64,000 bases of DNA from Dethiobacter sp. (GCA_020725665.1 DYEO01000028.1:718-64717); one strand, 5' to 3'. Positions 9,350 to 59,946 are shown, numbered from the stretch's first letter. Program-made: numbers and translations. The notes: generated by a model not told the origin, from the letters alone.

Positions 9350-10094
9350 AATTTTGCGCGGTATTGATATCAGAGGTTGGAAAACATATGAGCCCCGGGT
9401 GCCTGAGGAGGGAAAACCCGGGGACGATCTTAAAGAGAACGCATTGATGGAGCCCCAGCTTCCACCACCGCCCACGCGGGAGGAAATTGAAAAGGAGCGG
9501 ACAGAGATCCTGGCGGCGGCCCGGCAGGAGGGAGAGCGCATACGCCGGCAGATCCTGGCAAAAGCAGGCGAGGAAGCGACCGTTCTCCGGGAGAGGGCCA
9601 TTGCGGAAGGTTACGGGGAAGGCTATGCCCGGGGTGAGCAGGAGGCGGAGAAACTGCGGGAAGAAGCGGCGCATACCCTAAAAAGGGCAAAAGAGGAGCA
9701 CCGCAATATGCTTGACGGTGCGGAGGAGGAGATCCTGCGCATCGCCGTCAGCATGGCGGAAAAGCTTGTGCACGTGCAGGTGGAACTGAACGAGGATGTG
9801 ATCCTGGCCATGCTGGTGCGCTGTCTGGAAAGTTTACCCGGGGGGCGCGAGCTGGTGCTGCGTGTCAATCCCCGGGATGAGCAACTCTGCCGCAGCAAGG
9901 GACAAATGCTGCAGGGTTTATTGCGCCGGGATGCCTCCCTGCAGATTGTTGCCGATGCTGATCTGCCAAGTGGAAGCTGCATCGTGGAATCGGAAGAAGC
10001 AGAAGTCGCTTTTCTATTACAAAAAGAACTGGAAATCCTTACTAAAAAACTCCTCGCTTTGGCAGTTGACAGGGGACAAAGGACAATTGGATAA
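9333..10094 (+). CDS. fliH: flagellar assembly protein FliH
   Basis: Glu/Arg-rich coiled-coil N-terminus followed by a FliH C-domain. Overlaps the fliG stop and precedes fliI. Confidence 0.8.
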   Translation: MPLSPKILRGIDIRGWKTYEPRVPEEGKPGDDLKENALMEPQLPPPPTREEIEKERTEILAAARQEGERIRRQILAKAGEEATVLRERAIAEGYGEGYARGEQEAEKLREEAAHTLKRAKEEHRNMLDGAEEEILRIAVSMAEKLVHVQVELNEDVILAMLVRCLESLPGGRELVLRVNPRDEQLCRSKGQMLQGLLRRDASLQIVADADLPSGSCIVESEEAEVAFLLQKELEILTKKLLALAVDRGQRTIG

Positions 10095-10189
10095 ATGGAT
10101 GGTTTGATGTTTCTCCGGCGTGCCGGCACACCGACTTCTGAGCTCTGGCTCGTAGGGGCGGACGACCCTGTCCGCCCGCCTGGTTTGCA

Positions 10190-16824: not shown

Positions 16825-16842
16825 TGACTACTGACTACTGAA
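16825..16842. repeat. short tandem heptamer repeat TGACTAC x2 (+TGA)
   Basis: tTGACTACTGACTACTGA in the gap between flgE and motA. Confidence 0.6.
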
Positions 16843-19627: not shown

Positions 19628-19648
19628 TAACCTCCAACCTCCAACCTC
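19628..19648. repeat. short tandem heptamer repeat (T/C)AACCTC x3
   Basis: TAACCTCCAACCTCCAACCTC in the gap before fliO. Related copies lie at 41788-41808. Confidence 0.6.
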
Positions 19649-31266: not shown

Positions 31267-31337
31267 CGATTTTCGACTTTTGACTTTCGACATTCGACTT
31301 TATTCAGTCCCGACTTTCAACTTTTGACCTTTGACTT
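31267..31337. repeat. array of ~8 tandem TTTYGAC-like heptamers
   Basis: cgaTTTTCGACTTTTGACTTTCGACATTCGAC...CGACTTTCAACTTTTGACCTTTGACtt fills the 212-nt gap between flgG and fliM. Confidence 0.65.
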
Positions 31338-37820: not shown

Positions 37821-37880
37821 CGAATGTCAAAAGTCAAATGTCAAAAGAGAACAGTAAACCTTAGACCTTAGACCTTAGAC
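37821..37880. repeat. two tandem heptamer arrays: GTCAAAW-type x3 (rc of TTTTGAC) and CCTTAGA x3
   Basis: cgaATGTCAAAAGTCAAATGTCAAAAG ... CCTTAGACCTTAGACCTTAGAC in the 84-nt gap between cheY and cheC. Confidence 0.65.
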
Positions 37881-40136: not shown

Positions 40137-40923
40137 TTGAAAAACGAATGGGACTATAGTGAATTTAAAGTGGCTTTTTTTCGACGCACCGGGCTGGATT
40201 TGAACCTTTATAAAGACAAGCAGATGGAAAGGCGTATCCGCCAGCTGATGCAGCGGGAAAAAAAACCCGGTTTTAAGGAGTTCTATGATTACCTTGCTTC
40301 GTCAACGACAGCCATGACTTTTTTTTTTCAATTACCTTACGATCAACACTTCAGAATTTTTTCGTGATGAGAAGATTTACAGCCTGCTGGAGGCGGAGAT
40401 TTTTCCGGAAATTATCCATAAAATTACAGGGAAGCTGATTGCCTGGAGTGCCGGTTGCTCCATTGGCGCAGAGCCGTATACGGTGGCGATTATCCTGGAT
40501 CGATTAAAAGTCCTTTCCCGGTCGGAGATCCACGCTACCGACATGGATGATAAAGCCCTGCTGGCGGCGCAGCAAGGCTGCTACAACCAGAAACAGTTGG
40601 GCAAGACACCATCCCATGTGGTGGAAAAATATTTCACCCGGGAAAAGGATATCTACTGTGTGAAGCCCGAAATCCGCAAAGCAGTCCATTACCGGCGGCA
40701 TAACCTGCTTACGGATGACCCTATCGCCAAATGCCACATCATTTTCTGCCGTAATGTTTTTATTTACTTTAAACCGGAAACGCAGCATTTTCTCCTGGAG
40801 CGTTTTTCCCGGGTCCTCAACCCCGGGGGATTCATGGTTATTGGCTCGGCCGAGTACATCGGCAACCCGTCACAATACTCCTTCAGCAAACGCTACAACA
40901 CCATTTTCCAAAAAAACAGTTGA
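40137..40923 (+). pseudogene. cheR: chemotaxis methyltransferase CheR, interrupted by +1 frameshift in a T10 homopolymer
   Basis: N-part in frame 0 (…ASSTTAMTFFF then stop at 40367). The rest continues in frame +1 from 40330: NYLTINTSEFFRDEKIY...LIAWSAGCSIGAEPYTVAIIL...VFIYFKPE. Nine Ts instead of ten would restore TAMTFFFNYLTINTSEFFRD. Confidence 0.85.
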
Positions 40924-41665
40924 CAATTGACGTATGCCCAGCCAAAGGCTGCTTTGCCGACGACCTAATCGTACTCATCAACTGGCATCCGTCAAACAAT
41001 TGGCTCGTGAAAGCAGTAACCCGCAGAATCAAGGAAGAACTGGAGAAGCTTCAGGTAGAATTGAACCAGGAAAAGAGCAAAGTGGCAGACCTCACCAAAG
41101 GGGAAAGCTTCATCTTCCTGGGCTTTGAGTTCCGTAGAATAAGGAGCAGAAGTGGAAAATGGAGACCCTACTACACACCAAAACAGGAGAAGCGCAAGAA
41201 GCTAATCACGGAACTTCAGGAGATATTCAGCAAGTATACTTCGCAGCCCGTGGGGAAAATAATTGAGGAAATAAATCCGAAACTACGGGGATATTGCAAC
41301 TACTATCGCATCGGACAATCGGCGCGTTGTTTCAGCTACATCAGGCAATGGGTGATGAAGAAAGTATGCAGGCACCTGCAAAGAGCAAGAGGACGCTCGG
41401 GGTTTGGCTGGAAAAGGTGGAGCTCGGCGTATATCTATGAAGTGCTCGGACTGTATAAAGACTACAAGCTGAAAAGATATATCCCGGCAGCCGGACCGGC
41501 AGAGAGGACACATAAACCTTGTTATGAAGCCAATAGGTAAGCCCGGTGCGGGAAAACCGCACGCCGGGCTTGAAGAGGCGGAAATAGAGTAAGGCAGGAT
41601 ATTGAGGCACTGTCAACCGAAAGGGACAGCAAACAGACTAGGTCTGCCTAAGCCACTACGCCAGT
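40920..41665 (+). mobile_element. 5'-truncated group II intron remnant: RT from motif 5 onward, maturase (X) domain, and domain V
   Basis: ORF 40920-41540 carries FADDLIVLI (the RT YADD box) and a maturase region (PKLRGYCNYYRIGQSARCFSYIRQWVMKKVCRHL). 41539-41571 folds as canonical domain V: AGC triad, 7-bp plus 5-bp helices, 2-nt CG bulge on the 3' strand, purine-rich loop. No domains I-III or RT motifs 0-4 are present upstream, because cheR occupies that position. Confidence 0.75.
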
Positions 41666-41703
41666 TTTCGACCCTACAGGTTAACAGTGGACAGTTTACA
41701 ATT

Positions 41704-41787
41704 GTAGGGGCGGGTCTCTGCGCCCGCCCGTGTAGGGGCGGGTCTCTGCGCCCGCCCGTGTAGGGGCGGCTGCTCACAGCCGCCCGC
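41704..41787. repeat. three tandem REP-like GC palindromes (two identical 27-nt units plus a variant)
   Basis: tGTAGGGGCGGGtctctgcgCCCGCCCg occurs twice, followed by tGTAGGGGCGGCTGctcaCAGCCGCCCgcc. Confidence 0.7.
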
Positions 41788-41808
41788 CAACATCCAACCT
41801 CTAACATC
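41788..41808. repeat. short tandem heptamer repeat CAACATC/CAACCTC/TAACATC
   Basis: Three heptamers directly after the REP triplet and before the tautomerase RBS. Confidence 0.55.
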
Positions 41809-42041: not shown

Positions 42042-42100
42042 GGAAAAACCAGGGTGGCACCTGCCGTAGTGTCAAGTTGTTTCCCACCCTGGTTTTTTTA
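42042..42100. terminator. bidirectional rho-independent terminator
   Basis: AAAAACCAGGGTGG...CCACCCTGGTTTTTTT: 11-bp GC stem with A-run and T-run flanks, between convergent tautomerase and iorB genes. Confidence 0.75.
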
Positions 42101-46117: not shown

Positions 46118-46145
46118 GGAAGTTGGAAGTTAGAAGTTGGAAGGT
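46118..46145. repeat. short tandem heptamer repeat GGAAGTT x4 (degenerate)
   Basis: GGAAGTTGGAAGTTAGAAGTTGGAAGGT. Abuts a REP element. Confidence 0.6.
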
Positions 46146-46146
46146 A

Positions 46147-46176
46147 TGTAGGGGCGGACGACCCTGTCCGCCCGCG
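46147..46176. repeat. REP-like GC palindrome identical to the copy at 10152-10180
   Basis: tGTAGGGGCGGACgaccctGTCCGCCCgcg. Confidence 0.65.
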
Positions 46177-55891: not shown

Positions 55892-55920
55892 TTTTGACTT
55901 TTGACTTCTGGCTACTGATT
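55892..55920. repeat. short tandem heptamers TTTTGAC x2 followed by a TGGCTAC/TGATTCC relative of TGACTAC
   Basis: gTTTTGACTTTTGACttcTGGCTACTGATT in the divergent intergenic region. Confidence 0.55.
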
Positions 55921-58668: not shown

Positions 58669-59940
58669 ATGGCGGAGCTTAAAAGAGAATTGGGCCTTGT
58701 CGATGTCTTTAGTATTACTGCCGGCTCTATGATCTCGGCAGGGCTTTTCCTCTTACCGGGCATTGCCTTTAATCAGGCCGGTCCCGCCGTAATCCTTTCC
58801 TACTTACTTTCTGGTATGCTGGCCTTTATCGTTATGCTTAGCGCGGCAGAACTGATCACCGCCATGCCCAAGGCGGGAGGCGTTTATTACTTTATCAGTC
58901 GCGGCGCTGGGTTCCCGGCAGGTAGCGTGGCCGGATTTGCCCGCTGGTTTGCCATCAGCCTGAATAGCGCTTTTGCCCTTCTTGGCATCGGCGTGTATGC
59001 TGTTAACTACACAAATATTCCCCTGGTTGTTATTGCCACGGCCTGCGGCCTGTTTTTTATTACCATTAACCTGTTGGGGATTAATCTGGTAGGCCGGGTG
59101 CAGCGCTATTTATTATTCGGGTTGATCGCCCTGCTTTCCTACTATGTTTTTTCCGGCTTACCCGCGATCAGGCCGGAAAGGTTTATTCCCTTCCTGCCTC
59201 ACGGTCCCGCCCCCGTCCTCTCCACAGCGGGATTTATCTTTATCTCCTATGGCGGGCTGCTCGTGATTACCGGCCTGGCGGAAGAGGTAAAAAAGCCCGA
59301 CAGGAACATTCCCCGCGGCATGCTCCTTTCCATCATAACGGTAGGACTTTTATATGTGTTTACTGTGCTCGTTACCGTGGGAGTAATGGATCCTGCAGCC
59401 CTGGGCTCTTCTCTTACCCCCATCTCCGACGGCGCCCGGGTTTTTCTCGGGCTGTATGGGGCCGTTCTTATTATCTTTGCAGCATTTCTGGCCCTGGTTA
59501 CCACCGCCAATGCGGGCATCGCTTCCGCTTCCCGTTACCCCCTGGCCATGAGCCGTGACGGACTGCTGCCCTCATTTTTTCAGCGAGTGGATCCCCACTA
59601 TGCCATTCCCCGTCCGGCGATCCTTGTAACCGGTGCATTTATCACCCTCGTAATCTTATTTATCAGACTTGACCTGCTGGTAAATGTTGCTTCCACATTG
59701 CTGATCATCACCTATATTATGACGAATATCACTTTGCTGCTGGTGCGCAAACGGGGTGGAACTGTATACAAGCCCGGGTTTCGTGCCCCTTTTTACCCCT
59801 GGCTACAGATTACCGGCACGGTAGGCCTGTTTTTTGTCCTTTTCCTGATGGGTATTTTACCCCTGCTCTTCAGCGTTTTTTTCATCCTGGCCGCCCTGGT
59901 CTGGTACTACTGGCGCAGGCAAAAAACAGTTGACAGTTGA
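58669..59940 (+). CDS. APC-family amino acid permease
   Basis: 12-TM permease with an APC signature (FSITAGSMISAGLFLLPG). Confidence 0.85.
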   Translation: MAELKRELGLVDVFSITAGSMISAGLFLLPGIAFNQAGPAVILSYLLSGMLAFIVMLSAAELITAMPKAGGVYYFISRGAGFPAGSVAGFARWFAISLNSAFALLGIGVYAVNYTNIPLVVIATACGLFFITINLLGINLVGRVQRYLLFGLIALLSYYVFSGLPAIRPERFIPFLPHGPAPVLSTAGFIFISYGGLLVITGLAEEVKKPDRNIPRGMLLSIITVGLLYVFTVLVTVGVMDPAALGSSLTPISDGARVFLGLYGAVLIIFAAFLALVTTANAGIASASRYPLAMSRDGLLPSFFQRVDPHYAIPRPAILVTGAFITLVILFIRLDLLVNVASTLLIITYIMTNITLLLVRKRGGTVYKPGFRAPFYPWLQITGTVGLFFVLFLMGILPLLFSVFFILAALVWYYWRRQKTVDS

Positions 59941-59946
59941 CATGCC

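Follow-up and report, generated by a model that had tools for sequence, protein, structure and literature searches.

The end of the che operon in this Dethiobacter sp. assembly (GCA_020725665.1 DYEO01000028.1:718-64717) raises the question of what kind of group II intron lies between cheR and the next gene, and by what route it became defective. The stretch of 64,000 nt that was analysed (hereafter the window) is derived from a metagenome-assembled genome (MAG). The initial annotation, made from the sequence alone, had described a 5′-truncated intron, consisting of RT motif 5, a maturase and domain V only, fused to the cheR stop codon and followed by a REP triplet. Alignment with full-length relatives revealed a different anatomy: the element is a relic of 746 nt (40932–41677) composed of intron nt 1–20 and the last 726 nt, with both termini retained. 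The features are listed in Table 1.

Table 1 Features at the cheR end of the che operon and repeat families of the 64,000-nt window; positions are counted from the first nucleotide of the window.
Feature	Position	Strand	Basis or remark
cheR	40137..40923	+	last che gene upstream of the intron relic
5′ exon, left part of heptamer array, ACAGTTG ACAATTG AC	40916..40931	+	TRF on reconstructed empty site
206-aa ORF	40920..41540	+	Pfam GIIM, RVT_1 and TIGR04416 matches; contains FADD
Retained intron 5′ end, 20 nt, GTATGCCCAGCCAAAGGCTG	40932..40951	+	identity to 5′ ends of full-length relatives
Deletion junction	40951..40952	+	blastn and alignment against L004
Ribozyme domain V	41539..41571	+	Rfam alignment, MFE fold, compensatory changes in 12 relatives
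Domain VI, 106 nt	41572..41677	+	Rfam alignment, conserved 3′ end, covariation
3′ exon, right part of heptamer array, AGGTT AACAGTGG ACAGTTT ACAATT	41678..41703	+	reconstruction; AG start as in relatives
Three tandem REP hairpins, GTAGGGGCGG-N-CCGCCCG	about 41703-41788	+	TRF: period 28, 2.9 copies
4-oxalocrotonate tautomerase gene, 61 aa	41832-42017		downstream of the intron relic and REPs
REP copies	2028, 2136, 8313, 29556	-	GTAGGGGCGG-variable self-complementary core-CCGCCCG
REP copies	10152, 41704, 41732, 41760, 46148	+	GTAGGGGCGG-variable self-complementary core-CCGCCCG
Period-7 arrays	10063-10110, 16825-16841, 19629-19648, 31267-31301, 37826-37880, 46118-46143, 55892-55907, 59926-59942		all intergenic

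The 5′ terminus of the intron was fixed with eighty further metagenome loci. At the aligned position the broad family starts with GUGYGUCCAGC and the close subfamily with GUAUGCCCAGC; the terminus in the window starts GTATGCCCAGCC..., so that the 5′-terminal GUGYG appears as the variant GUAUG at 40932, as it also does in L004, L006, L007 and L008. The retained 20 nt comprise this GUAUG and the first small hairpin, CCAGCC-AAA-GGCUG, and are identical at 18–19 of 20 nt to the 5′ ends of the full-length introns in L004–L008 (those of L004 and L005 read G(T/C)ATGCCCAGC(C)(G/T)AAGGCTGGGGCG...). The 5′-terminal 21-mer of L004 has a single match in the 64 kb, with two mismatches, where 0.00 matches are expected in shuffled sequences. 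Directly after 40951 follows CTTTGCCGACGAC, encoding (R)FADD of RT motif 5, and in an eight-row alignment the window moves at 40951/40952 from the rows of intron 5′ ends to the rows of RT motif 5. With the first 20 nt of the intron joined to RT motif 5, what is missing is an internal segment and not the 5′ end.

From the junction onwards the window (40951–41679) is 87.8% identical to L004 positions 1371–2105 (blastn), and the missing segment corresponds to L004 positions 125–1371, about 1247 nt, which comprise RT motifs 0–4 as well as domains II, III and IVa and the remainder of domain I. These alignments establish the identity of both termini and the extent of the deletion. Of the earlier statement that domains I–IV and RT motifs 0–4 are missing, the loss of RT motifs 0–4 and of nearly all of domains I–III stands, but the first 20 nt have been kept. 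Rfam D1–D4 models gave no match in the window; the relatives in L004 (model group-II-D1D4-4) and L005 score 91 bits. With domains I–III deleted, and with them EBS1 and EBS2, the element is a relic rather than a functional member of its family; it lacks the ribozyme scaffold and RT motifs 0–4 and can neither splice nor move, as had been supposed.

Two other readings of the junction were rejected. An 11-nt insertion in a 5′-truncated coding stretch (YARFADD) was discarded, the extra bases being the intron's first hairpin as found at the 5′ ends of L004 and L005. A deletion between two GTATGCC(C)-like repeats, one at the intron 5′ end and the other just before RT motif 5, would have left a product lacking AGCCAAAGGCTG, which is present.

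One history suggested previously was abortive retrohoming, that is, incomplete reverse transcription leaving a 5′-truncated copy, attached to the cheR stop and starting in RT motif 5. It would account for the loss of RT motifs 0–4 and domains I–III next to an intact 3′ junction, and 5′-truncated copies are a known outcome of retroelement activity. The 20 nt immediately before the RT motif 5 junction are, however, the intron's own 5′ terminus, and the exons on both sides continue one heptamer array; a 5′ truncation would carry no 5′ terminus, nor leave the precise 5′ exon junction that is seen here. We therefore regard this origin as highly improbable, and the corrected anatomy, with both termini kept around an internal deletion, bars the copy from serving as an example of abortive reverse transcription.

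Very probably, a full-length class F-like intron once occupied the heptamer array 8 nt past the cheR stop and later lost its internal segment. An endonuclease-less intron of ~2.0 kb would have inserted in sense orientation downstream of cheR, inside a short ACAGTTG-type array directly 5′ of the three REP hairpins, presumably through EBS1-guided reverse splicing into a heptamer unit. The subsequent loss of about 1247 nt, which we infer to have taken place in the DNA after insertion, would have placed the first 20 nt next to the codon that precedes FADD and eliminated the exon-binding sites together with RT motifs 0–4 and the ribozyme scaffold (remainder of domain I to IVa); the 206-aa ORF would be a by-product of the in-frame junction. 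This account is limited in that the window comes from a MAG and that the microhomology at 40951/40952, at most 1 nt (G), gives neither the timing nor the mechanism of the deletion.

The same minimal microhomology would suit a deletion made during mobility, in which the RT left the template in the RT motif 5 region and resumed synthesis on the last 20 nt of its 5′ end, or copied an internally deleted RNA, the intron being defective on arrival. Group II RTs switch templates, and both termini and both exon junctions are precise here. The observations do not discriminate between a template jump and a later DNA deletion; however, none of 85 related loci has a copy with these breakpoints, and the other ORFs with only a GIIM domain come from frameshifted full-length introns (L005, L088, L091) or from IS elements inserted in an intron (L089, L090). 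We consider a deletion during mobility unlikely and retain the later loss from an inserted full-length intron as the preferred reading.

The junction might also be an artefact of metagenome assembly, for example a collapsed or chimeric repeat: the contig belongs to a MAG, introns are repeats that disturb assemblies, and the adjoining cheR carries a homopolymer frameshift. Against this, the two sides of the junction share at most 1 nt, which should leave a k-mer graph without a path to make the junction, and the gene order is collinear on both sides. In addition, the identical ORF is present on two contigs in the protein database, and the downstream piece of the split cheR (a 146-aa call) is recorded also on a second, 67-kb NCBI contig. 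An assembly artefact is very unlikely.

The genes on the two sides of the relic are arranged in the order cheA-cheY-cheC-cheD-cheB-cheR, intron relic, tautomerase gene, followed by convergent iorB and iorA. The CheR_N and CheR SAM-binding domains were found in two different reading frames of cheR. A T10 homopolymer at 40319–40328 constitutes the +1 frameshift that splits the gene; with T9 it would read in frame (...AMTFFFNYLTINTSEFFRD), and the split reflects either a mistake in sequencing or assembly or a real frameshift at a slippage-prone run. The TGA at 40921–40923, preceded by the C-terminus ...IFQKNS, is the native stop, because an orthologue with 72% identity (L086) ends ...IFQKTS at the equivalent position. 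The intron starts at 40932, 8 nt past this TGA, rather than being fused to it as had been stated, and the C-terminus of CheR is unaffected by the relic. L086, the sole cheR orthologue retrieved, has a different downstream neighbour, and no orthologous empty site was found. At 42045–42100, 3′ of the tautomerase gene, a strong hairpin with a T-run after it (CCAGGGTGG...CCACCCTGGTTTTTTT) was read by eye; a simple terminator scan did not list it. It is likely the terminator of the transcription unit, and this suggests that a single transcript could run from the che operon through the relic and the REPs to the tautomerase gene.

The 206-aa ORF spans 12 nt of exon, the 20-nt intron 5′ end, and then RT motifs 5–7 (about 40950–41132) and the maturase X domain (about 41196–41417), in agreement with the FADD motif and maturase X region recognised initially. 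It matches Pfam GIIM at 9.6e-14 (51.6 bits, cut-off 23) and TIGR04416 over model positions 212–351 of 353 (E 7e-30), and its RVT_1 match is confined to the C-terminal end of the model (positions 151–205 of 205). Since the ORF is only half a protein, its score alone stays under the TIGR04416 cut-off; the surviving part bears the RT and maturase X domains of an IEP, and a complete RT (motifs 0–7) is not encoded. In place of the usual stop codon (TGA/TAA) stands GGA, so that the frame continues for another 15 codons into domain V and closes about 40 residues past the X domain; the stop position varies among the relatives too. The homologues in the protein database (n = 597) are essentially all RVT_1 + GIIM proteins. 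The intron origin is already in the NCBI annotation, where the product (MEW5919710.1) is named 'group II intron maturase-specific domain-containing protein'.

An open frame of 206 codons whose TTG overlaps the cheR TGA, with low dN/dS against intact relatives, could be taken for a retained and expressed maturase-like protein, translationally coupled to cheR and acting in trans on other introns. No Shine-Dalgarno sequence is present upstream of the TTG, however, the first 11 residues derive from translation of exon and ribozyme sequence, and RT motifs 0–4 are absent. The protein cluster has a single member, every homologue found is intron-derived, cheR itself is frameshifted upstream, and the low dN/dS is equally expected of a recently inactivated copy. 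We give hardly any credence to a retained function: the TTG is simply the first start codon of an accidentally open frame, and the 'fusion' to cheR is a product of ORF calling, because the intron begins only after cheR's own TGA. For annotation purposes, the 206-aa 'maturase-domain protein' is better treated as part of a 746-nt dead intron than as a gene.

The 3′ part of the relic is that of a group II ribozyme. Domain V, at the position first proposed, has the AGC triad, a 2-nt AC bulge and a 5-nt GAAAA loop; it is not the only domain left, since it is followed by a full domain VI that has both the bulged A and the 3′ AY. Rfam Intron_gpII (RF00029) aligned at full model length over 41537–41677 with 34.6 bits (E 8e-5). 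A scan at gathering thresholds returned nothing in the whole window because this score is below the curated gathering score of 40; the low score is due to the very long domain VI of the family, and the domains V–VI of intact relatives score just 33–40 bits. The two domains fold with z = −3.65, and 16 of their 41 predicted pairs show compensatory changes in a 12-sequence alignment. Position 41671 is the predicted branch-point A in the Rfam alignment. An 8-nt deletion after 41579, visible as gaps at columns 44–51 of the window row in the 12-sequence alignment, has removed part of the 5′ strand of the domain VI basal stem relative to all close relatives. The intron had been thought to end at about 41665. 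It ends 12 nt further, at 41677, because all relatives end ...TCGACCCTAC (conserved in more than 60 of them) and the close ones continue with an exon that begins AG (...TCGACCCTAC^AG, where ^ marks the splice junction); written with domain VI, the 3′ end reads ...CGACCCUAC, with a conserved 3′ CUAC.

The intact form of the intron is known from relatives. A scan of reference genomes (GTDB representatives, the source MAG not being among them) gave two Syntrophomonadaceae MAG loci. The intron in L004 is intact at 105–2103 (1999 nt), with a ribozyme of ~700 nt without the ORF and a domain V–VI match, and its 431-aa IEP scores 362 bits with TIGR04416 (cut-off 300). The IEPs of L004 and L006 (431 aa) contain the RVT_1 and GIIM domains only, and the IEP is thus one without an endonuclease domain. 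No second intron copy was found within the 64-kb window by tblastn and blastn. The full-length copy that was to define the 3′ junction was not found in the sense of a master copy at ≥90% identity, the closest relative being 85–88% identical and from another MAG, but the alignment of relatives set the 3′ end all the same. The protein database holds no intact relative above 79% identity. Over 180 codons, dN/dS was 0.19 between the window and L004 and 0.16 between the window and L006, compared with 0.20 between the two intact copies, L004 and L006. As the value for the window equals that for intact copies, the divergence largely predates inactivation and the relic is comparatively young; the 8-nt deletion in domain VI and the changed stop codon are further decay.

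Other relatives are also disturbed or clustered. In L005 (3258–4543), an otherwise full-length relative has its IEP in three frames, with one break at the GVPQGG motif, and is either a pseudogene or an assembly error. Head-to-tail tandem introns occur in L003 (1701/1702) and L052 (2280/2281), where a 3′ end ...CGACCCTAC directly abuts a 5′ end GTATGCCC... or GTGTGTCCAGC....

The exons on the two sides of the relic are parts of one repeat. Joining 40931 to 41678 gives ACAGTTG ACAATTG AC^AGGTT AACAGTGG ACAGTTT ACAATTG, and the predicted empty site, ...ACAGTTGACAATTGAC^AGGTTAACAGTGG..., is a six-copy period-7 array of the ACAGTTG type abutting the first REP (TRF). Excision of the introns at L004 and L006, which are different loci, likewise gives arrays, of 11 and 5 copies with TCAGTAG/TCAGGAG units. 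The target array is thereby rebuilt, and the earlier impression of a repeat-rich spot at the end of the che operon holds for both heptamers and REPs. The sequence TTGACAATTGAC at the cheR stop, in which the junction had been placed, is 5′ exon and the place where IBS1 lies; the last 7 nt of this exon, AATTGAC, occupy the IBS1 position, as placed by EBS1 covariation in the relatives.

In a five-intron alignment of domain I, the EBS1 loop of L004 (ACUGACU) pairs with AGUCAGU^, that of L007 and L008 (GAGUAGU) with ACUACUC^, and that of L005 (GAGUAGU) with ACUGCUU^ by way of two G-U pairs. Over some 45 loci, this loop (about nt 214–221 of the intron) pairs at 6–7 of 7 positions with the last 7 exon nt and covaries with them, further loop/exon sequences being AACCGGA, AUCCGUA, GCUUCAA and others. 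This covariation establishes an EBS1-IBS1 pairing of 7 bp for the family and confirms the 5′ splice site; no convincing assignment of EBS2 was obtained from the relatives' domain I alignment. What EBS1 recognises in the two closest intact relatives is the heptamer unit and not the REP. The initial annotation had considered targeting of hairpins or terminators, but the REPs lie downstream, and the target is probably the heptamer array, because excision rebuilds an array and L004 and L006 sit in similar arrays with an EBS1 matching the heptamer unit. For the window copy, homing into the cheR-side array is plausible and no more, since its own EBS1 loop was lost with the deleted segment and a pairing count for the EBS1 sequences of the nearest relatives showed no pairing with AATTGAC.

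Period-7 arrays of 2–6 units were observed at about ten intergenic places in the window, with units that differ between loci (TGACTAC, AACCTCC, CGACTTT, GTCAAAA, ACCTTAG, GGAAGTT, ACAGTTG and others). Two window arrays carry the same TTGAC^AG context and are unoccupied. REP hairpins abut the array at 46118 (REP at 46148) and the cheR array (REPs at 41704), and similar heptamer arrays flank the relatives in L004, L005 and L006.

The REP triplet reported initially was recovered with a period of 28, although its distance from the intron 3′ end is 26 nt and not ~40 nt. It belongs to a family of nine copies (GTAGGGGCGG...CCGCCCG) in the 64-kb window, five on the (+) and four on the (−) strand, which vary in a compensatory manner in the central core. 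As short, repeated, intergenic imperfect palindromes with a 5′ GTAG head, these copies are REPs. GTAG-headed palindromes follow the intron after 26 nt in the window, 74 nt in L004 and about 55 nt in L009, and are absent after the introns of L005 and L007. The palindrome past the intact intron of the Syntrophomonadaceae MAG locus L004 (at 2177) is the same REP, and that in L009 a variant.

By its RNA features and domain content, the only criteria applied, the family resembles class F: it has no endonuclease domain, a ribozyme of ~700 nt, a domain V loop of 5 nt and a domain VI that is long and structured. The endonuclease domain is missing in classes C, D, E and F (PMC4424553); Nagy et al. (2013, PMC3753933) give the 5-nt domain V loop as a feature of IIE and IIF and assign the long domain VI to IIF. 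Class E may thus be an alternative, the 5-nt loop being common to both. Like the class F intron Pe.th.I2 of Pelotomaculum thermopropionicum (PMC3753933), the family combines an IEP without endonuclease domain (L004, L006) and a small ribozyme with a 5-nt domain V loop, a long, highly structured domain VI, full-length EBS1-IBS1 pairing, a 3′ AC and anaerobic Firmicutes hosts. Unlike that class, the subfamily of the window starts with GUAUG instead of GUGYG, and the window copy is without the domain I–IVa region.

With class C introns (PMC1702495) the family shares the missing endonuclease domain and an intergenic position just past a gene end and near palindromes, and the best-matching solved RTs are class C enzymes (7uim, 6ar1; E about 1e-46). 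Class C introns need a hairpin in the 5′ exon and have a very short IBS1 and no EBS2 (PMC1702495). In the window, by contrast, the hairpins are downstream, no stable hairpin is apparent in the 5′ exon, and EBS1-IBS1 measures 7 bp; an upstream stem-loop with an IBS1 of 3–4 nt was not found. No hairpin is evident by eye in the window's 5′ exon, and none that is stable was found in the 40 nt upstream of close full-length relatives (MFE −0.4 to −7.3 kcal/mol). Hairpin targeting of the class C type is thus inapplicable, because the hairpins are downstream and the subfamily has no stable hairpin in its 5′ exons.

The wider clade (61–64% IEP identity) homes into other group II introns, like the nested introns of Methanosarcina and bacterial twintrons (PMC4424553), but differs from these in that its site lies directly after domain V of the host intron. 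Among its members (L010–L085), 43 of the 62 scorable 5′ junctions directly follow a domain V hairpin belonging to another group II intron (...GAGCCGGAUGCGGGAAAUCCGCACGUCCGGUU^GUGUG), the host's domain VI serves as 3′ exon, and EBS1 is complementary to the 3′ strand of the host domain V, so that nesting at the domain V/VI junction is systematic. A limited literature search found no description of this insertion site. It is possible, if rather doubtful, that the class F-like, endonuclease-less subfamily switched its homing from this ancestral junction to a unit of intergenic heptamer arrays near REPs in Syntrophomonadaceae-like genomes. If so, the arrays would be multi-copy safe harbours and the cheR relic the decayed record of one event. 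Heptamer arrays as EBS1-matched targets, and a sister clade nesting after domain V, may be of interest for target choice by retroelements, on the strength of relatives outside the window.

According to Zimmerly and Semper (2015, PMC4424553), the majority of group II intron copies in bacteria have been truncated or inactivated. The relic resembles them in being non-functional and in lying outside housekeeping coding sequence at a repeat-rich intergenic spot, and differs from inactivated copies with one end lost (PMC4424553) in keeping both termini around an internal deletion. It is ordinary genomic debris of a known kind, from an intron lineage that has received little study, with an anatomy that is less often seen.
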